Shown: positions 1,588 to 56,042, numbered from the stretch's first letter. The stretch: 64,000 nucleotides of DNA from Thermoanaerobaculia bacterium (GCA_963664405.1 OY761158.1:5408001-5472000); one strand, 5' to 3'. The notes: a model not told the origin generated them from the letters alone. Numbers and translations: made by a program.

Positions 1588-3036
1588 CTAGAGATAAGGG
1601 GCGAAGAGTCGGGCGACGCCGTCGCGGAGTCGAAACACCAAGGGGCGCCCGGCTAGCTCGTCGGTCGAAAGTCTTCGGCTTGCCGCGATCTCGCGGTCGA
1701 CATGTCGATCCAGAGACTCCGCCAGATCGCGGTCGTAGCACTCGATATTGAGCTCGAAGTTGAGGCGTAGAGATCGCGGATCCCAGTTCGCGCTGCCGAC
1801 GAAAGACCACTCGCTGTCGACGATCATCAGCTTGCTATGGTCGAAAGGGGGAGGCGAGAGCCAGACCCTGCATCCGCCCGCGAGTACCTGCCAGAGCTGT
1901 GCCGTCGATGCCCACTGGACGAAGCGAAGGTTTCCCTTCTCGGGGACAACGATGTCGATCTCGACACCACGGAGTGCGGCGACGCGCAGAGCCGCGATCA
2001 GGACTTGATTGGGAAGAAAGTAGGGAGTAACGATGCGAGCTCTCTTACGGGCGACGGCGAGAGCCCCGAGGAGGGTGGTCGAAAAAGCCTCGAAGTCCTC
2101 GTCGGGTCCGTCGGAGACTACCCGCGCTTCGACCTCGCCGATCTTCTCGGCCCCCAACGCCCATGCCGGGCCCGAGAGCTCTTCGCCGGTCGTGAAGCTC
2201 CAATCGAGAGCCGCGGCGGCGAAGAGTTGGTGAACCACTGGGCCGTCGAAACGAAAGTGGATGTCGCGGACGGGGTGTCGAGGCGCGAGATCGAGACAGC
2301 ACCCTTCGCGAATGTTGAGCCCACCGGTGAATCCGGTGCGACCGTCGACGACGAGGATTTTGCGGTGGTTGCGTAGGTTGAAGTACGGACCGGGAATAGG
2401 GGAGCGTGGGCGCAGAAACTCGGCGGCTCGGAGGCCTCGCTTCCGCAACAGCCCGGTCATTCGAGGCCGGCTGTAACGCGCTCCGACACCATCGATCAGA
2501 ATCCGGACTTCGACGCCGCGCTCGGCCGCCTCGCCCAGGGCTTGCAGAAAGAGCTCGCCTGCTTTGTCGGCATCGAAGATGTAGGTGCACAGAATCACCG
2601 AGCGTCGAGCCTCGCCGATGGCAGCGAGCATCGCTGGATAAGCCTCGTCGCCATTGACCAGAGGAGTGACTCTGTTGCCACTCTCCAGAGGGGTGTTGGT
2701 GGCCCGCGAGACAAGCTCCGCGAGCGGTGTGAGGTTTCGCTCGTCGATGTCCGTGCCTTGTTCGTAGACCCGTGCCGCCTGGGCAGCCTCTACGGCGGGG
2801 CGCACCAGTCGCTCCGCGCGCCTACGGATACGGTTGATGCCGAAAATCCAATAGAGAATCGAGCCAAGCAGGGGAGTCAGCCAGATCAGACCCACCCAGC
2901 CGATGGCGGCACGAACGTCGCGCTTGTAGAGCACGACGTGACTCGAGGCGACAACGGCTGCCACGATGCCCAGGGCAGTGGCGGTGGCTAGCAGGTAGGG
3001 CCAGAACAGGCGCAGAGTGTCGACGAGCGTCTGCAA
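1588..3036 (-). CDS. cls: Cardiolipin synthase (PLD family)
   Basis: Two HKD motifs (NHRKILVVDG, DHSKLMIVD...GSANWD) and N-terminal TM helices. Start placed at TTG 3036; the longer ORF overlaps the upstream gene. Confidence 0.88.
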   Translation of the reverse strand: MQTLVDTLRLFWPYLLATATALGIVAAVVASSHVVLYKRDVRAAIGWVGLIWLTPLLGSILYWIFGINRIRRRAERLVRPAVEAAQAARVYEQGTDIDERNLTPLAELVSRATNTPLESGNRVTPLVNGDEAYPAMLAAIGEARRSVILCTYIFDADKAGELFLQALGEAAERGVEVRILIDGVGARYSRPRMTGLLRKRGLRAAEFLRPRSPIPGPYFNLRNHRKILVVDGRTGFTGGLNIREGCCLDLAPRHPVRDIHFRFDGPVVHQLFAAAALDWSFTTGEELSGPAWALGAEKIGEVEARVVSDGPDEDFEAFSTTLLGALAVARKRARIVTPYFLPNQVLIAALRVAALRGVEIDIVVPEKGNLRFVQWASTAQLWQVLAGGCRVWLSPPPFDHSKLMIVDSEWSFVGSANWDPRSLRLNFELNIECYDRDLAESLDRHVDREIAASRRLSTDELAGRPLVFRLRDGVARLFAPYL

Positions 3037-3047
3037 GAGAGCGCTGC

Positions 3048-3416
3048 TCAGATCTCGATCTCGATCCAGGCGCGCTTGCGAATGCGGCCGGCCAGGGTCG
3101 AAAGCACATCCGCAGTCCACATCAGGATGTGGTACTTGCGCCGAATCGCGCGATGCGCCTCCTTGATCGCCTCGGTGTCGGAAAGGATCTTCGCGGTCGC
3201 ATCGATCCATACCCCGTGTACAACACCGCGTCCGTTACAGGCGGCGACTCTCGCCTTGGAGGAGTTGCGCAGGCGCTTCATCTTGCCGGAGTCGGCAAGG
3301 GTGAAGACGTAGTACTTGTCACCCTTCTCGACGAACCAGACCGGTGTGGCCACAACCTTGCCGGTCTTGCGAAAGGTGGCCAGGCTCAGATACTTCTCGC
3401 CCCGGAGCGGGTCCAT
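3048..3416 (-). CDS. PPOX-class F420-dependent oxidoreductase
   Basis: YLSLATFRKTG..VATPVWF and SGKMKRLRN...V.VAACNGRG signatures. Confidence 0.85.
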   Translation of the reverse strand: MDPLRGEKYLSLATFRKTGKVVATPVWFVEKGDKYYVFTLADSGKMKRLRNSSKARVAACNGRGVVHGVWIDATAKILSDTEAIKEAHRAIRRKYHILMWTADVLSTLAGRIRKRAWIEIEI

Positions 3417-3484
3417 GGCTCAATTCTAACTCTGTCGCCCGCCTCCCCTTCCGGTACCATCTCGGCGGAGGTCGGCGATCGAGT

Positions 3485-4384
3485 ATGGAGGAGTTTCAAC
3501 GGGTCGTGGGTCTGGATGTCGGCGGCACCAACATCAAGGCGATTGTGGTGGACAGTTCCGGCGCCGAGCTCGACCGTTCGACAGTCGCGACACCTCGACA
3601 GAGAAGCGCCCTGCTGAATAGTGTGCGAGAGCTTCTCAGTGAGCTTGCCGGGGCCCCTTCAACGCCCCTTGTAGGTCTTTCGTGCCCGGGCCTGGCGGCG
3701 CCTGACAGCCGTTCGATTGCGTGGATGCAGGGCCGCATGGAGATCCTGCAGGGGCTCGACTGGACTGAGGCCTTGGGCCGGGAGCGGGCTGTCTGGGTGC
3801 TCAACGACGCTCACGCTGCGACCTTGGGAGAGGCGTGGCTGGGGGCGGCAAAGAATCGTCAGAACGTCGTTCTTCTCACTCTGGGCACCGGCATCGGTGG
3901 CGGAGTGATCGTAGACGGACGACTGCTGCAAGGACAGATCGGCCGCGCCGGACATCTGGGTCATCTCTGCCTCGACGTCGACGGCCTACCCGATATCTGC
4001 CGCACTCCCGGTAGCTTGGAGGACGCGGTCGGGGAGTGCACCCTCGAGGCTCGAGCCCGGGGTCGATTCCGGGACACTCAGGCGCTGGTGGAAGCGGTGC
4101 GCGAGGGAGACGAAGAGGCCAACGAGGTTTGGCGCCGGGTCGTTCGCGCCCTCGCGTGCGGCCTGGCCTCTCTGATCAACGTGGTCGACCCCGAGGTCGT
4201 CGTTCTTGGTGGCGGCATAGCCCAGGCTGGGGGCACTCTCTTCGAGCCGCTGGGGCAGCAGATGGACGAGGTGGAGTGGAGGCCGCTGGGCGCAGGGGTG
4301 CCGATCGTGCCCGCCGCTCTCGGTGACTTCGCCGGCGCTTTCGGGGCGGCGCGGTATGCCATGGACCGCGAAGTCCCCATCTGA
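3485..4384 (+). CDS. ROK family sugar kinase (glucokinase-like)
   Basis: GLDVGGTNIK, NDAHAATLGE, LTLGTGIGGG and GHLGH motifs. Confidence 0.88.
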   Translation: MEEFQRVVGLDVGGTNIKAIVVDSSGAELDRSTVATPRQRSALLNSVRELLSELAGAPSTPLVGLSCPGLAAPDSRSIAWMQGRMEILQGLDWTEALGRERAVWVLNDAHAATLGEAWLGAAKNRQNVVLLTLGTGIGGGVIVDGRLLQGQIGRAGHLGHLCLDVDGLPDICRTPGSLEDAVGECTLEARARGRFRDTQALVEAVREGDEEANEVWRRVVRALACGLASLINVVDPEVVVLGGGIAQAGGTLFEPLGQQMDEVEWRPLGAGVPIVPAALGDFAGAFGAARYAMDREVPI

Positions 4385-48723: not shown

Positions 48724-51403
48724 TCAGTCGGCGGGAACGAGATGCTTCAGCTCCTCGGCCCAGTTCAAGACGACCTGGATGTGGGCTGGCGCGCCCTCGA
48801 GAGCCTTGATGAAGACGAAATCTCCGTTGGGTAGGACGTCGTACTGGGGGAAGGGGGACGGGTGTGAGTAGTAGCGCGCCTCGAAGAGGAGCTTCGGCCG
48901 CGAGTAGGTGAAGCTCTGGCCACCTGCCGACTCAGCCACGTCGACCTTCATCAACAGGTCACCGTTACGGTAAAAGAGCTCGCGCCCTTGCGTGCTCCAG
49001 ACGGGGTTTCGACCACCCCCGGTCGAGATTCGATACTTCGCCTCCGAGGTTCCGGCCAGCGGTCGCACGTAGACATTCAGCTGACCGTCTTCGTCGCTGA
49101 CGTACGCCACCCACCGCCCGTCGGGGGAGGATCTAGAGCTGGTCTCGTAGACCGGCGTCGCAAGAAAAGGTCGCGGCTCTGTTTCACCGGCAGGCAGCAT
49201 CATGATGTCGTGGAGGTTTACCGGATCCACCAGCTGGTAGAGAAGATCTCCGTTCGGCGTGAAGGAATGCGCCACCTGCACCGGCCCGGGTGCAGTAACG
49301 GCAATTTCGTCGGCGCTGCCATCGGCCAGCTTCGAGAAGAGGCCGATCCCTCCAGGTCGAGTCGACTGGAAGACCAGGCGATCACCTTCGGCGCTCCACA
49401 CCGCGAAGCCCGATCCCTTGAAGGTCAGCTGCCGCCGACTCTCCTGGGCTAGATCGTAGATCCAGACTTCGCGCCGCCGCAGGTCGGTGGCGTTGTTGCC
49501 GCTGAGGACCGTTACCGATACCTGATCTCCTGCTGGTGAGACGCGAGGCGCCAGATAGCTGTCGGGTGGGATCTCGAGCGGCGTCTCTTTGCCACGGCGA
49601 TCCACTCGTACCAGGGTCGACAGCCGTTGAGCGCTGATCGGCGTGGTTGCAAGGAGGTTTCTCGCGACCGCGTATTGCGACACTCCCCGCGCCACCGGTA
49701 CCGGCGTGCCGGTGACGCTCCCGGCTTCGACATCGAAGGGCACGGCCATCAAGTCGTTGTCGCGGCGAAACAGAAGATGTCCGGTCGATACGACCTGGGG
49801 GTCACGGGCGTCATCGAGCAATGTGAGTCTTCTGCCCGAGGCAACGTCGATGGCGATCAGGCTCGGGAGGCGCGAGGCGGCCACCACCTCCGCGAGGACG
49901 GTCTTTCCGCCGGGGAGTAGCTCGGGTGAGCTCGGTTTCCCTCGCCGCCCTGTTTCGCCGCCAGAGTCTGGAGCGTCCGCGTCGTCCGCGGGGACGGGAG
50001 GATGATAGAGCTCCGCAGTGCCGCCGACGGCCGGTACCACCAGCAACTCGTCCGAATCGAGGGTGGCGAAGACGATGCGATCGTCGTCACCCCAGGCACC
50101 GCCTCGGGGGATTGGGACATCGCAGATCGCTACCGGGGCTCCCCCCCCCCTGGGTCGGCAACCTCTTGAGCTCCGTGCCCTGAAAGAAGGCGATCCACTC
50201 GCCGTCCGGTGAGAACAGCGGAAACTGCGCCCCCCGGGTTCCCGCTAGCGGCTGGCTCGAGGGATCCGCGATTCTGCGGAGATGGAGCTGGTCTTGAGCT
50301 ACGAAGACGAGCTGGAGTCCGTCGGGCGATAGTGCGAGCTCGCGAAGCCCTTCAAGCCCTCTACCGTTGGCGCCGGTGATACTCAGCCGGGCCGGTCGTA
50401 GCGTCACGGGCTTTTCGTTTCGCGGCGCGATCAGGGTCGTCAGCAGCATGCCGGCTGCCAGTCCAACAGCAAGCGCGAGGGCAACACGTCCCCGGACCTT
50501 CGTGGGGGTGACCGCAAACTCGGAACCTGCGTTCGGGTCGGTAGCTGCGTCCCTCGCCTCCTCGATCTCGAAGCGAGCGTCACCGATGTCGCGCAATCTC
50601 TCGCTGGGCTCTCTCTTTAGGCAACGACGGAGCAGACGCTGGATCGCTCTCGGCGTCGGCGCAAGCCTTCCCCAGTCCAACTCTGCCCGAAGAACCGCTG
50701 CCAGTGTGTCGGCCGCATCGTCGCCCTCGAAGGCGCGGCGGCCTGCAAGCGCCTCGTAGAGGCACGCGCCGAAGGCCCATACGTCGGCCCGCTTGTCGAC
50801 CTCCCTGCCCTTCGCCTGTTCGGGCGACATGTACGCCGCGGTGCCAAGGATCTGGCCCTGGCGCGTTGCCGCGTAGGTGAGCGTGGGCGACTCCGAGGAG
50901 TCGCTCTCCGGGCCTGTCGCCGGAGCCATTGCCTTGGCCAGACCGAAGTCAAGAATCTTGACGTTCCCGTCGTCGGTGACCTTGATGTTCGCGGGTTTGA
51001 GATCCCGGTGGATCACGCCCTTTTCGTGGGCTGCCTCTAGACCTTCCGCGATCTGCAAGAAAACGGGCAAGGCTTCATCGACGGGGACAGCACCTCTCTT
51101 GATGCGCTCGGCGAGTGTCTCGCCTTCGACCAGTTCCATGACCAGGAAGTTAGTGTCCCCTTCCTTCTCGAAGCCGTAGAGCGTGGCGATGTTGTTGTGA
51201 TTCAGTGAGGCGAGGACGCGAGCCTCGCGCTCGAAGCGCGCCAGCCGCTCAGGATCTGTGGAAACCTCATCGAGAAGGAGCTTGATCGCTACCTCGCGCC
51301 CGAGCTTGGTGTCCTTGGCGCGATAGACCTCTCCCATTCCTCCCACTCCGAGGCTTGAGACCACTTCATAGTGGCCAAGGCGAGTGCCAGCTTCGAGCGC
51401 CAT
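48724..51403 (-). pseudogene. Ser/Thr kinase-TM-TolB/PD40 propeller K1, frameshifted at a G10 tract (50141-50150)
   Basis: Hanks motifs (Gx[24 protein letters not shown]); ORFs 50087-51403 and 48724-50046 join if the tract is G9 or G6. Confidence 0.85.
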
Positions 51404-51463
51404 GACTTGGCGACATCTTACCCGTCGCCCGTGGGATCAGCGGCTCAGAGAGCTGATTCCCGC

Positions 51464-51540
51464 TGTCGCGATGCACCCGGAACTGCGACAGCAGGAGCCT
51501 ATTCAGATCGAGCTATGGCTGTCGCAGTCCGCCACCAAAG
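51464..51540. repeat. 27-bp site (51464-51490), 29-bp linker and left part of an IS-interrupted site (51520-51540)
   Basis: TGTCGCGATGCACCCGGAACTGCGACA..GCCTAT-N9-GCTAT-N3-TGTCGCAGTCCGCCACCAAAG. Confidence 0.85.
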
Positions 51541-51671
51541 TCATCATAGAAATGCGCTCGGGTGCGCCCGAGGTCAAGAAGTAGGGAGTTGTGAAGAACG
51601 GTCCTCCGTCGAAAGGGTCAAACTCGAGATGAGTAATTACCCTGGGCTTAGCCCCAAGAAGGAGGACCGAA

Positions 51672-52710
51672 ATGGAACGATATCTCGGACTCGACATGCA
51701 TCGGGACAGCTGCACGGCCGTCGTGCTGAGTGCCGGTGGGAAGAAGACCGGCGAGCAGGTGATGGCGACCGAAACCGCCGCGTTGGTGCAGTACATAAAG
51801 AGTCTCTCGGGAGAGCTTCACGTCTGTGTGGAGGAGGGCGAGTGGAGCGAGTGGGTAGTGGAGATCCTCAATCCATGGGTCTCGCGGGTGGTTTCGGCGT
51901 CGGCTCCGGGTCGCAAGGGTCCTCGCAGCGATGCGATGGACGCTCGCGAGCTCGCCGAGCGTCTGAGGACTCGCCAGACGGGTCCACCGGTCTACAAGGC
52001 GTCTCGGGAATGGGCGCGGCTGCGCGAGGCAGTGCCGCCTGGAGGGCAAGCTGCTCCAGGACGCGGTACGAGCCAAGCAGCGGCTCAAGAGTCTGTATCG
52101 ACGTCGTGGTGTGGCGTGCTTGGGCGAGGAGGTCTACTCCCCGCAGCTGCGCGAGCAGTGGCACGCGAAGCTGCCCGCAAGCGTGCGGCCATCCGCCGAG
52201 CTCCTGGGTCAGGAGCTCGATCACCTCACAGAGCTGCACCAGACCGCCGAGCGGCAGATGTGTGCAGCCGCTGGCAAGTTTCCGATGTGGCGCAAGCTCC
52301 AGACGGCTCCGGGGATCGGCCGCAAACGATCGGCACAACTGCTAGCGATCGTGGTGACCCCTCATCGCTTCCGCACCAAACGACTCTTCTGGTCCTACTG
52401 CGGACTCGGTGTGGTCACGCGCTCGACCTCGGACTGGGTCCGCCAGCCGAACGGTCAGATGGTGCGGGCTCCAGTGATCCAGGCCCGGGGGCTGAACAAA
52501 GCCTGCAACCGTCAGCTCAAGGGGCTCTTTGTGGGCGCCGCGAAGACGGCTCTCCGCTGCCGGCGACCCAATCCCCTGCGCGACGCCCACGAACGGATGG
52601 TCGAGGCCGGGACCAAACCGAATCTGGCCCAGCTCACCATCGCGCGAAAGATCGCTGCAGTGGTGCTGGCCATGTGGAAGAGCGAAAGCGAGTATCGGAT
52701 CATGAGCTGA
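51672..52710 (+). pseudogene. IS110 transposase, +1 frameshift near 52035
   Basis: YLGLDMH, VEEG, SDAMDA; second frame has PGIG, F.TKR.FWSYCGLG..TRST and IARKIAA..LAMWK. Confidence 0.85.
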
Positions 52711-53090
52711 GTCTCACCTTCGACCGCTTCCCTGCCGGGCTCTGGCGCCGAGCGCCGGACCGAGACGGGGATCGGTGCCGGGTCGGACTCAGAGATCCAA
52801 AGGTCGAGGGAGAGTCTCCACTGTCGTCTTGTGCCCCATCATCGATGGGAGTAACTGACATAAGTCTAGGCCCCCTCCCAGGACCAAAAGAAGAGATGGC
52901 CCACGAGGCCCTGATGGAAGGCTGGTCCCAGCATACGAGGACCCACACACTCACTTCTCATCTCACGAGCTCACCCGCAACAGGAACCGATCCCCGAACC
53001 GGAAGACGCCTCGCGGATCCACTCGGTAGAGGAATAGCCCGCGCTCGATCCCAAGACCTCGAGCGCTCAGGGAAACTCCGTCTTGACATC
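52711..53090 (+). ncRNA. Predicted bridge/seek RNA of the IS1111-type element (bounds approximate)
   Basis: CCAAAG (52797-802) matches left target plus core; CTGTCGTCTT (52821-30) is the reverse complement of core plus right target AAGACGACAG; ATGGAAG (52914-20) matches the donor right end. Confidence 0.7.
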
Positions 53091-53104
53091 GATTTCTATG
53101 GAAG

Positions 53105-53176
53105 ACGACAGCTCGCCGATTTCGGGGCCTATCGCCTTTCAGCTATTCGTGTCGTGGTCCGCCAGATTCTGCGACA
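53105..53176. repeat. Right part of the interrupted site, 39-bp linker and 27-bp site (53150-53176)
   Basis: ACGACA..GCCTAT-N9-GCTAT-N3-TGTCGTGGTCCGCCAGATTCTGCGACA, 6 bp from the K2 stop codon. Confidence 0.85.
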
Positions 53177-53182
53177 CGGTGA

Positions 53183-55888
53183 TCAGTCGGTCGAGGTGAG
53201 TCGTTTCAACTCGTCGAACCAATCGAGAACGACGTTGATGTAAGAAGGCGTCGCTTCCGGAGGCTGGAGCATCAGGAAACGATTGCCGTCGGACGTGACA
53301 TCGTAGTGGGAGACCCCCTTGCCGAGCCGAGGGGCCGGCCATCCGCTGAGGAGAACCTGCGCTGGCTCGAACGTGAAGACAGAGCCGTTGGTCTCGACAG
53401 GAATAACCATGAGGAACTCGCCCTGGCGAAAGAACAGTTCCCGTCCGTCGCGGGACCACACCGGGTCCCGGCCGCCGTTTGCGGAGACCGGAGTGGAACC
53501 TACAGGCTCAGGATACGACGTGACGTGGACCTCCTTTTCGCCCGTCACCTCCGACACGTATGCGATCCATCGCCCGTTCGGCGAGAAGGTCGGCGAGTCC
53601 TCGTTGTGCGGACGCGAGAGAAAATCGCTCGGCCCCCCCTCTTCGAGGATGCCAATGTCCGATCCGGCCGGCGTGGTCTCGAAAAAGGCGAGGGCGTTGC
53701 CATCTAGGCCCCAAGAGGTCGGAAACTGACGGCCTGCCCGCGCCAACAACTGCTCCGGCTCCCTCCCCCCATCGGCCGGCACGAAGTGCAGGTCAAAGTG
53801 CGCGGCTCCCCTGACTGCGGAGAATGTGAGTCCGTTACGCTGCTGGTCCCAGACGGGCGTGAGATTGTATCCGTCGGTGGTCAACAACGTCCGGGTGCCA
53901 CTTTCGACATCGATGACCCAGATGTCGGGCGTAATCGTTACGGCGATCTGATTGCCATCCGCCGATAGACGAGGGGTCTTGTAAGGGGCAAGGCCGTCGA
54001 CAACCGGCGTCACCTGCTGGTTCTGTCGATCGACCCAGACGAGCGTCGTGTCCGTCGCGCCGGAATCTTCCGGCGGGTAGGCGAGCGTTCCGGTGTCGGA
54101 CACCGCGAAATGCGCGCCACCCAGCCCGGCGAGATACGGAACCCTCTCGGTGGTGGGAATGGGAGAGCCACTGGCACTCAGCCGGTCGAGATCAAACGCA
54201 ACCACCATCAAGGCCCCATCCTGGGCATATACAAGATGTCCTGTTTGGACGTAGCGGGCACCGTGGGCATTGGGGAGCACCCAGTCCCATTCATTTGACG
54301 CAAGGGACAAGATCGCGGCTCGCGGCCCGTCGTTGTAGTTGATGGTAAACAGGACGTGCTGACCGCCGGGGAGAATCTGGGGATCGAAGTGCCGAAATTC
54401 CCCCACCGCGGCGTCTGGAAGCGTCAGTCGTTCCGGTACTCCGGCACCTGCTGACACTTTGTAGAGGCCAAACGTGAAATGCGAAAAGATGATGGTGTCA
54501 TCACGCCCCCAGCTCGCGCTCGGGAAGAGCCCGATCGTGTCGCAAATCTTCACGGGGGACCCACCCAAAACCGATACTTTCTGCAGCGTCCTGTTGGCAA
54601 AGAAACCGATCCATTCGCCGTTCGGTGAAAAGAATGGAGCTTGCGCGCCTTCGGTACCCGCGATCGGCTGAGCTTCGAACTCGTCGATCGGGCGGAGAAA
54701 CAGCTGCGTCGATCCACCCCCAGGCTGCGCTGCCGTGTAGACCAGGAGTTGACCATTGGGCGAGATTGCGATGGCACTAACGGCGGCCTCCTCGCCCAAC
54801 GACAGCTCCTGGTCGGGCGGAAGCGCGACAACGAGTCGAGCCGGAGACCGCACCTCGGCCTGCCGCAGGGCCCACCAGGCGCCGGCTCCCGCTCCCACTG
54901 CGAACAGCGCGGTCAGCGCCCATGGGACCAGTCGCTGCCAACGGTGAGCCTGAAGCGGCCGTTCGGCCTGGCGTGCATCAACGGCCGGAGCCGCGAAGGC
55001 ATCACCGATCTCGATCCGCGCGTCGGCCTGAAGCTCATCGCCGACCGCCTGAAGCTCGATCCCGACATCCAGGGCCGACTGCCAGCGTCGCTCGGGGTCT
55101 TTGGCCAGGCAGCGGCTCACAACCCAGTCGAGGCGAGGTGGAGCGATCTCTTGGACCGCCCTCAGCGGTCGAGGCTCCGAGGCCATGATGGCGGTGGTCA
55201 GGGAAGCTTGGTTGTCGCCCTGGAAAGGGCGCTCGCCGGTGACCATCTCGTAGAGCACGCAGCCCAGTGCCCAGATGTCGGTGCGGGCGTCGGTGTCCTT
55301 GCTCTCCAACTGCTCCGGTGCCATGTAGAGCTGCGTACCGAGGATCGAGTCCTGACCGGTGATCGGCTGCATCCTCGTCGGTGACTCTGTGTTGGCCGCC
55401 AATGGCTCCGGCTCGATGCTCTTCGCCAGTCCGAAGTCCAGCACCTTGACGCCGGTCTTCGTCAGCATCACGTTGCCGGGCTTCAGATCCCGATGCACCA
55501 CTCCGGCCTTGTGGGCGGCATCGATCGCTGCACCGATCTGGCTCCCGATCTCTAGCGCCTGAGCGATGGGAAGAGCCCCCTTCTTCAACCCCTTCTCAAG
55601 CGTCTCGCCTTCCACCACCTCCATGACCAGGAAGCGAGTGCTGCCGTCTGTGTCGAAGCTGTAAAGCGTGGCGATGTTCGGGTGATTGAGGCCGGCCAGG
55701 ACCTTGGCCTCGCGCTCGAACCGCGCCATCCTCTCAGGATCCCCGGATACCTCCTCCAATAGCAGCTTGACCGCCACCTCACGACCGAGCTTCGTGTCTT
55801 TCGCTCGGTACACCTCTCCCATGCCTCCCGCACCGAGGGAGGAGACGATCTCGTAGTGGCCCAGGATTGTGCCTGGTTTTAGCTGCAT
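53183..55888 (-). CDS. Ser/Thr kinase-TM-TolB/PD40 propeller K2 (intact, 901 aa)
   Basis: Hanks motifs, TM helix, repeated FSPNG.WI blades and C-terminal YDV..DG.RFLM..VVLDWFDELKRL. Confidence 0.92.
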   Translation of the reverse strand: MQLKPGTILGHYEIVSSLGAGGMGEVYRAKDTKLGREVAVKLLLEEVSGDPERMARFEREAKVLAGLNHPNIATLYSFDTDGSTRFLVMEVVEGETLEKGLKKGALPIAQALEIGSQIGAAIDAAHKAGVVHRDLKPGNVMLTKTGVKVLDFGLAKSIEPEPLAANTESPTRMQPITGQDSILGTQLYMAPEQLESKDTDARTDIWALGCVLYEMVTGERPFQGDNQASLTTAIMASEPRPLRAVQEIAPPRLDWVVSRCLAKDPERRWQSALDVGIELQAVGDELQADARIEIGDAFAAPAVDARQAERPLQAHRWQRLVPWALTALFAVGAGAGAWWALRQAEVRSPARLVVALPPDQELSLGEEAAVSAIAISPNGQLLVYTAAQPGGGSTQLFLRPIDEFEAQPIAGTEGAQAPFFSPNGEWIGFFANRTLQKVSVLGGSPVKICDTIGLFPSASWGRDDTIIFSHFTFGLYKVSAGAGVPERLTLPDAAVGEFRHFDPQILPGGQHVLFTINYNDGPRAAILSLASNEWDWVLPNAHGARYVQTGHLVYAQDGALMVVAFDLDRLSASGSPIPTTERVPYLAGLGGAHFAVSDTGTLAYPPEDSGATDTTLVWVDRQNQQVTPVVDGLAPYKTPRLSADGNQIAVTITPDIWVIDVESGTRTLLTTDGYNLTPVWDQQRNGLTFSAVRGAAHFDLHFVPADGGREPEQLLARAGRQFPTSWGLDGNALAFFETTPAGSDIGILEEGGPSDFLSRPHNEDSPTFSPNGRWIAYVSEVTGEKEVHVTSYPEPVGSTPVSANGGRDPVWSRDGRELFFRQGEFLMVIPVETNGSVFTFEPAQVLLSGWPAPRLGKGVSHYDVTSDGNRFLMLQPPEATPSYINVVLDWFDELKRLTSTD

Positions 55889-55949: not shown

Positions 55950-56042
55950 TGGCGTCTTCCACCATGAAAGACGACAGCCCCTCTGCTCAGAGGCTCATCT
56001 GCTTTCAGCTATACGTGTCGTCCTTCGCCACATTTCACGACA
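55950..56042. repeat. Paired 27-bp sites (55950-55976, 56016-56042) with 39-bp linker
   Basis: TGGCGTCTTCCACCATGAAAGACGACA / TGTCGTCCTTCGCCACATTTCACGACA. Confidence 0.88.

Follow-up and report, generated by a model that had tools for sequence, protein, structure and literature searches.

A frameshifted IS1111-type insertion sequence in a palindrome family of a Thermoanaerobaculia bacterium and its predicted two-loop guide RNA

Introduction

Insertion sequences (ISs) of the IS1111 group have a long non-coding region downstream of the transposase gene, and the seekRNAs produced from this 3' region are essential and reprogrammable in ISEc11, ISPa11, ISKpn4 and ISPst6; known targets of the group include a repetitive extragenic palindromic (REP) sequence and attC sites (PMC11187229). 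A second study describes sub-terminal inverted repeats of 7–17 bp and long right ends for the group, with bridge RNAs predicted in the right end of 93% of its elements (PMC11208160). ISPpu9 and ISPpu10 are also reported in REP sequences (PMC12288879). RNA-guided IS110/IS1111 recombinases are under development as programmable genome-insertion tools. Here we describe an IS1111-type element, referred to as c1, at positions 51541-53104 of a 64,000-nt stretch of the genome of a Thermoanaerobaculia bacterium (GCA_963664405.1 OY761158.1:5408001-5472000); this whole stretch is called the window below. The best explanation of the data, to which we give a probability of about 0.85, is that c1 is an IS1111-type IS whose predicted two-loop RNA reads the right arm of a palindromic target together with the right end of the IS.

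Among the described systems, ISPa11 (IS1111 group, Pseudomonas aeruginosa) resembles c1 in its sub-terminal inverted repeats, in a 3' non-coding region giving a seekRNA, in an abundant extragenic palindrome (REP) as target and in a top-strand match lying 5' of the bottom-strand match (PMC11187229). Both the host phylum and the palindrome family differ. ISEc11 and ISXne4 offer a case of natural reprogramming, in which the RNA stems are kept and the target-matching loop bases differ (PMC11187229). The same is seen across c1, its relatives L053, L061, L063 and L064, and others, but this series is longer, most of its members lie within one palindrome family, and in the c1 subclade the left flank is matched far less well than the right. 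ISPpu9 and ISPpu10 (IS110 family, Pseudomonas putida) share with c1 the insertion in repetitive extragenic palindromes. ISPpu10 circles are reported to form a hybrid promoter, whereas for ISPpu9 the downstream small RNA is not needed for transposition and there is no junction promoter (PMC12288879).

The bridge RNA of IS621 (IS110 group) likewise has target and donor internal loops of two strands each, a core shared by donor and target, and a DEDD transposase partner (PMC11208160; PDB 8wt6 was matched). Unlike that of c1, it is encoded in the left end with the guide order reversed, and the protein similarity is weak (E = 5e-6). The core here behaves as AAG, often only partly shared, and not as a dinucleotide as in IS621. 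In IS621 the core is CT. The element described here represents a known class and mechanism, not a new mechanism, and it is set apart by its NCBIfam score, its motif changes and its host phylum. A literature search on Acidobacteria, IS110 and palindromic sequences listed no paper whose title or abstract deals with this element or site. Which loop positions are read can be learned from natural series of reprogrammed guides, and the present clade offers about ten guide variants with matching flanks in a simple two-loop structure, with an unusually clear contrast between the right-flank guide, which is strong, and the left-flank one, which is weak.

The predicted RNA and its guide strands

The genome is a single contig of 6.78 Mb and holds three copies of the element, namely c1 and the pair c2 and c3, which are 68% identical to c1 and nearly identical to each other. 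Among 300 genomes from the same order, 14 (this one included) have related transposases with 40–57% protein identity, a DNA search of 61 relatives gave matches in 10, and a degenerate pattern of the RNA scaffold found 14 close copies in metagenome contigs. A genome-contig search with a single protein returned one locus only, with a 39-residue match (the nearest named record is an Acidobacteriota metagenome-assembled genome).

A scaffold 3' of the stop codon is common to all relatives. RNAalifold, run on 12 and then on 23 of them, gave the same two-module fold in both cases, and the 3' non-coding region very probably encodes a bridge/seek RNA of ~125–140 nt with two internal-loop modules. The parts of this predicted RNA are as follows.

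52806-52877, plus strand: target-binding module; outer stem GAGGG/CCCTC (52806-10 with 52873-77), internal loop, inner hairpin 52832-53
52821-52830, plus strand: right-flank guide CTGTCGTCTT in the 5' strand of loop 1 (52818-31); complementary to the top strand, predicted to pair with AAG + ACGACAG
52857-52866, plus strand: left-flank strand on the 3' side of loop 1, GACAT-AAG-TC
52881-52928, plus strand: donor-binding module; outer stem 52881-86 with 52923-28 (GGACC./.GGTCC), loop, GGCC/GGCC hairpin (52898-910)
52914-52920, plus strand: ATGGAAG in the donor loop (3' strand); same sequence as the right IS end with the core

In the first module the outer stem is followed by a short second helix and then by a large internal loop, which is closed by a variable hairpin. 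The loop strands of c1 are 52818-31 and 52854-67 in module 1, and 52887-97 and 52911-22 in module 2. Standard pairs fill 96.8% of the cells (26 pairs, 23 sequences), compared with 34–54% when the partners are slid by 1–3 columns. Moreover, compensatory changes occur in 8 of the 26 pairs, and the covariation score was reached by none of 500 shuffles. By comparison, then, the region has the conserved structure, with internal loops carrying guide strands, that is expected of a bridge/seek RNA. An initial annotation, made from the sequence alone, had suggested folding this region and looking for guide/target covariation; the fold of c1 by itself was uninformative, and it was the comparative structure that placed the guide in a loop, covarying.

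The guide CTGTCGTCTT (52821-30) is a perfect 10-nt complement of AAGACGACAG (53102-11). This is more than expected by chance: when the c1 non-coding region was shuffled with its dinucleotides preserved, a complement of 10 nt to the right junction arose in 4 of 2000 cases. We examined the family in two sets. The first comprised 15 IS species from 11 genomes, each represented by its first listed copy that has a right flank, and 20000 permutations. Here the mean length of the longest complementary run was 7.13 nt for an element's own core and right flank, against 3.85 nt for the flanks of the others (0/20000 permutations), and runs of 6–11 nt were found in 11 of the 15 species. The second set was the close clade, whose 14 copies with a right junction are c1, c2, G008a and 11 metagenome copies. 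In a fixed register these guides matched their own flanks at 8.29 of 13 positions and those of the others at 6.93 (0/20000 permutations), with at least 8 matches in 10 of the 14 copies. Guide and flank change together in L053 (AAGGCGACACC), L061 (AAGTTGACAGTG), L063 (AGGTGCCA) and L064 (AGGTGACAC), while in L062 and L065 they differ at two positions in step. As a result, the proposal that CTGTCGTCTT is the right guide stands: it sits in loop 1, and it covaries with the right flank in both sets. The loop bases thus covary with the target flank on the right, and more weakly on the left (43/20000).

The match of ATGGAAG (52914-20) to the right IS end, also pointed out before, proved correct; the motif lies in the donor loop, and this 3' strand covaries with the right end (mean 7.93 for an element's own right end, 4.49 for others; 0/20000 permutations). 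The two bases that follow the core in the donor strand fit the right flank in nine relatives (G158, G128, G130a, G130b, G129b, G129d, G051, G149 and G041). As a reader of the right flank in c1 these two bases were rejected, being GC where the flank has AC, and most close-clade copies fail too. The left-flank strand is identical to the left junction over 9–11 nt in G158a, G075b-d, G130a, G129a, c3 and L063. In c2/c3 this strand matches the centre of the site (GGCGCAAAC, 9/9 in c3), and in c2 the right-flank guide fits poorly.

The initial annotation had placed the left guide elsewhere, at CCAAAG (52797-802, plus strand). We rejected this candidate, which lies 5' of the outer stem and outside the loops, does not covary, and has two bases before AAAGG that ignore the flanks; its 6-nt identity to the left flank is at chance level, as 1373 of 2000 shuffles gave one at least as long. 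Within the group of close relatives (c1, c2/c3, G008a and the metagenome copies) AAAGG belongs to the conserved scaffold irrespective of the flank, and the rest of the family differs at this point. In c1 the homologous left-flank strand is 52857-66. The proposed order, with the left match 5' of the right match, is also the reverse of that in IS1111 seekRNAs, and the strands identified here follow the latter, with the top-strand match 5' of the bottom-strand match (PMC11187229). Of the claim that the RNA is programmed against the 27-bp site, the right guide is supported by comparative evidence, the left guide was wrong, and the specialisation has to be narrowed as described below.

The target palindromes

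The sequences on both sides of c1 belong to a family of 27-bp palindromes, of which the following are relevant to the guide.

51520-51540, plus strand: left part of the interrupted 27-bp palindrome; arm TGTCG (51520-24), 13 loop bases, AAG (51538-40)
53102-53111, plus strand: second AAG and right arm of the palindrome (A + CGACA + G); the segment predicted to be paired by the guide
55950-55976, plus strand: same geometry, unoccupied; one mismatch in the left arm (TGGCG), holds AAGACGACAG; a plausible further target

Removal of the IS and one AAG restores TGTCG-N17-CGACA (51520-40 + 53105-10). There are 118 exact-arm sites of this kind in the genome at N17 and 6–32 at the other spacings from N10 to N25, so the abundance of the family, previously deduced from the IS, is true by direct count. 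When one arm mismatch was allowed the site counts gave no clear N17 peak, and only the exact-arm count is used here. Two subtypes can be told apart: 60 sites have a CGCCA-like centre, and in the second subtype the centre is mostly CACC. Many sites are preceded by GCTAT. They are clustered, often in pairs ~66 bp apart, and the clusters are spaced by one gene length between tandem kinase/PD40 paralogues. In the window, sites are present at 51464-51490, 51520-40 + 53105-10, 53150-76, 55950-76 and 56016-42, between tandem Ser/Thr-kinase/PD40 genes. The N17 count and the clustering describe an abundant extragenic palindrome of fixed geometry, as expected of a REP-like target family; the sites may act as REP-like elements, operators or terminators. 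The insertion of c1 marks these palindromes between tandem kinase genes as a real repeat family and as landing sites for mobile elements.

The 10-mer AAGACGACAG has three exact matches in the window, at 52821-30 (minus strand), 53102-11 and 55968-77, and the 55950 site does contain AAAGACGACAG, as had been noted when it was named as a predicted target. Genome-wide, the 10-mer occurs 26 times, compared with ~9 expected from base composition. One of these occurrences is the guide itself, one is the occupied junction, four lie in right-geometry palindromes and 20 are elsewhere. Because the full 10-mer is present in only four other right-geometry palindromes, the sites open to c1 are a small minority of the 118. 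Left flanks are available for 10 copies of the clade, and in 8 of these a TGTCG-like arm precedes the core at a distance of exactly 13 nt. L063 shows a joint change of both arms (TGGCA.../...TGCCA), with a matching change in the guide; the targets of L061 and L055 are different and non-palindromic. The copies c2/c3, which represent the second IS species of the genome, lie in the same palindromes in the opposite site orientation. The idea of an IS specialised on this site thus holds as a link at the level of the clade, and was overstated for a family in which most of the 118 sites are without the 10-mer. In addition, L061 and L055, whose guide is for TTGACAGTG, both carry CCTCG in the left flank at the same spacing of exactly 13 nt from the core, which hints at another repeated target family.

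Element anatomy and transposase gene

The segment 51541-53104 is a real IS; it belongs to the IS110 family, is organised like IS1111-group elements and has a broken transposase gene. Its features are listed here.

51541-53104, plus strand: IS copy c1, 1564 bp, placed by alignment with c2/c3 and relatives
51545-51553, plus strand: left sub-terminal inverted repeat CATAGAAAT, 9 bp, preceded by the 4-nt extension TCAT
51672-52710, plus strand: transposase gene; N-terminal DEDD domain, C-terminal Transposase_20, one extra base at ~52035
53083-53088, plus strand: TTGACA near the right end; a circle junction would set CATCAT of the left end 17 bp behind it
53092-53100, plus strand: right sub-terminal inverted repeat ATTTCTATG, 9 bp

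The trinucleotide AAG is present at the left junction (51538-40) and at the right junction (53102-04), so that the boundaries are ambiguous by these 3 bp at both ends and 51538-53101 is equally valid. The span first given, 51520-53110, contains the IS and in addition 21 + 6 target bases. The inverted repeats, of 9 bp, are situated 4 nt inside each end (the right one counted with AAG), within the 7–17 bp of the IS1111 group, and the non-coding DNA around the transposase gene amounts to 131 nt on the 5' side and 394 nt on the 3' side, in keeping with the short left end and long downstream region of this group. The IS1111-type organisation, the repeats CATAGAAAT/ATTTCTATG and the AAG at both junctions were therefore correctly recognised in the initial annotation. 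The same is true of the TTGACA-17 bp-CATCAT spacing, which was obtained by joining the IS ends with one AAG; TTGAC is retained in the right ends of most relatives.

An empty site or a circle junction was looked for in public runs, and no clean case was seen there. The joints 51485 to 53106 (X1/X3) and 51497 to 53141 with 14 other letters (X9) were considered as excision products and rejected, being off the IS ends. The sequences beyond these joints deviate from the window (at 6 of 58 letters in the X1/X3 contig piece), and the joints are read as other loci.

The frame from 51672 contains the DEDD_Tnp_IS110 domain, and the frame 52111-52710 contains Transposase_20. The c1 fragments score 28.8 bits for PF01548 (cut-off 29) and 41.2 bits for PF02371, and the intact paralogue c2/c3 scores 42.3 and 40.2 bits, with both Pfam domains over their cut-offs. 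A tblastn search with the intact paralogue showed that the c1 halves are one base out of frame (residues 1-122 and 123-345), and the alignment with c2/c3 located one extra base at ~52035, in agreement with the frameshift reported earlier. Apart from this base both halves of the gene are open and are 63–64% identical to the paralogue. The c2/c3 transposase has 344 aa, within the IS1111 range of 330–350 aa, and that of c1 is of equal length save for the frameshift. The DEDD residues are kept in c2/c3, in which GID, CxE and D..DAR align with IS621, and the c1 translation has LGLD, CVEE and SDAMDAR.

The extra base at 52035 is present in the X1 and X3 contigs and absent from one contig each of X8 and X9. 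Since the latter are without it, the frameshift is a feature of the copy in this strain, and near-identical open-frame copies exist elsewhere. The X8 copy has two further differing bases next to the guide (52820-21), and its contig departs from the window sequence after AAGACGAC. For host biology c1 is probably inactive and an ordinary IS copy. As a separate observation, residues 177-285, in the C-terminal part of the protein P0001, match the NCBIfam model 'TIGR-Tas system RNA-guided endonuclease' with 51.6 bits, below the cut-off of 100.

Proposed mechanism and alternative explanations

We propose that c1 entered one site of the palindrome family between tandem kinase genes and later lost its transposase frame. 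The 5' strand of loop 1, CTGTCGTCTT, would pair with the target top strand at the AAG core and ACGACAG (the right palindrome arm), and the 3' strand of the same loop would read the left flank, the core and the first IS bases, though weakly in c1. In loop 2, the 3' strand ATGGAAG would read the right IS end and the core. By analogy with studied relatives, recombination would pass through a circular intermediate whose junction sets TTGACA and CATCAT 17 bp apart, and strand exchange would take place at AAG, leaving AAG on both sides. The proposal is built on the anatomy, the comparative RNA structure, the covariation of guide with flank and with the right IS end, and the abundance of the sites; production of the RNA, its binding by the transposase and the chemistry of strand exchange are inferred.

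Several observations weigh against this proposal. On the left side, the c1 strand GACAT-AAG-TC shares with the junction CACCA-AAG-TC the core, the first two IS bases and only two of the five flank bases; the family test for this strand (43/20000 permutations) is weaker than that for the right; and among the c1-like copies with a left flank the match is poor in L053, L055, L059 and L061 (four of the five others) and good only in L063. No convincing pairing of the donor loop 5' strand with the left IS end was seen by eye. On the right side, the species that miss by run length are c2 (5), G129a (4, with a degenerate right end), G129b (4, one mismatch splitting a longer match) and G008a (4, a truncated copy), and those that miss in the close clade are c2 (6/13), G008a (3/13) and L057 (5/13), while the 10-nt run of L052 is displaced from the register by one base. 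For c2-like copies the register was shifted by one base, a choice made with the data already in view, and because the sequences are related the permutation counts overstate independence. An Rfam search of 51400-53250 with E up to 1 gave no match, c1 folded alone was unlike the comparative structure and no better than shuffles (z = -1.77), and of the listed public runs with the element, which come from sediment metagenomes, none is on record as RNA. As for the protein, it scores 118.5 bits against NCBIfam NF033542 (IS110 family RNA-guided transposase), below the cut-off of 140 with a full-length match over 5-338, which points to a divergent lineage. The IS1111 motif GL-P----S(t)G is altered as well: GLTPRRYESG of IS621 aligns with GLGIVTRSSS of c2/c3, and c1 has GLGVVTRSTS, so that P has become I/V and SG has become SS/TS, with the hydroxyl residue retained at the first position.

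The IS might need only AAG + ACGACAG(+), a short word found in few family members, in which case its insertion in a palindrome would be partly incidental. We consider this doubtful, although less improbable than the other alternatives. It agrees with the fact that only 4 of the 24 remaining 10-mer occurrences fall in right-geometry palindromes, that AAGA before the arm is missing from most of the 118 sites, and that L061 and L055 are in non-palindromic targets. Against it stand the arm placed 13 nt from the core in 8 of 10 clade copies, the guide of L063 having followed when its arms changed together, the presence of c2/c3 in these same sites in the opposite orientation, and the 26 occurrences of the 10-mer where ~9 are expected. 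That the protein is the main determinant of target choice, or that a hairpin or cruciform in the palindrome DNA is, with the RNA match secondary or a relic, is quite unlikely. Guide and flank co-change at positions outside the arm, and also where the arm itself changes, and the RNA is essential and reprogrammable for four IS1111-group elements (PMC11187229); nevertheless the targets are palindromic, short hairpins have G075 copies at their 5' foot as well, the c1 subclade shows a poor match of the left-flank strand, and c2, G008a and L057 lie at right flanks that their guides match poorly.

Finally, the 10-nt complementarity could be a coincidence in a degenerate, dead element, as the frameshifted transposase gene and the shortness of a 10-mer that 4 of 2000 shuffles reach would allow. 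This is highly improbable, since the match is at the exact position that covaries with the flank in relatives, the gene halves are open save for one base and 63–64% identical to the intact paralogue, and near-identical copies without the extra base occur in other samples. Returning to the RNA-guided IS1111-type element, we can extend this reading speculatively. The IS could belong to a distinct and divergent lineage, IS1111-like and found in sediment Acidobacteriota, whose diversification has gone along with that of the one family of 27-bp palindromes. It would have a 'one-armed' bridge RNA that chooses its target almost wholly through one strand (core plus 7–9 nt of the right arm), the other strand reading hardly anything beyond the core and the left end of the element itself; such a lineage would use the sites in either orientation, with a transposase without the canonical P and SG.

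Other observations on related copies and neighbouring genes

The copy c3 is without its last ~30 bases, its right end having been lost to an unrelated IS with a 411-aa open reading frame (ORF) (L003 ~2940-4181; G000:C1 near 780.6-781.9 kb). This second IS may be ISL3-like. The junctions of c2 (L002) and the metagenome copy L058 read AAA or CAA on the left and ACT or GAC on the right, so the two 'core' copies differ; this would be consistent with donor and target cores that were not alike and exchanged strands behind their first base. One contig (G075:C24:281551-287037) carries a related IS in three full tandem copies ~2.2 kb apart, and the other copies in G075 are located at the 5' foot of short perfect hairpins. 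In the window, the kinase ORF 50087-51403 (minus strand), downstream of the IS in gene orientation, encodes 438 aa compared with the 901 aa of its neighbour. It has only a trace of the PD40 region and looks truncated, and the IS is situated ~135 bp upstream of its start codon.

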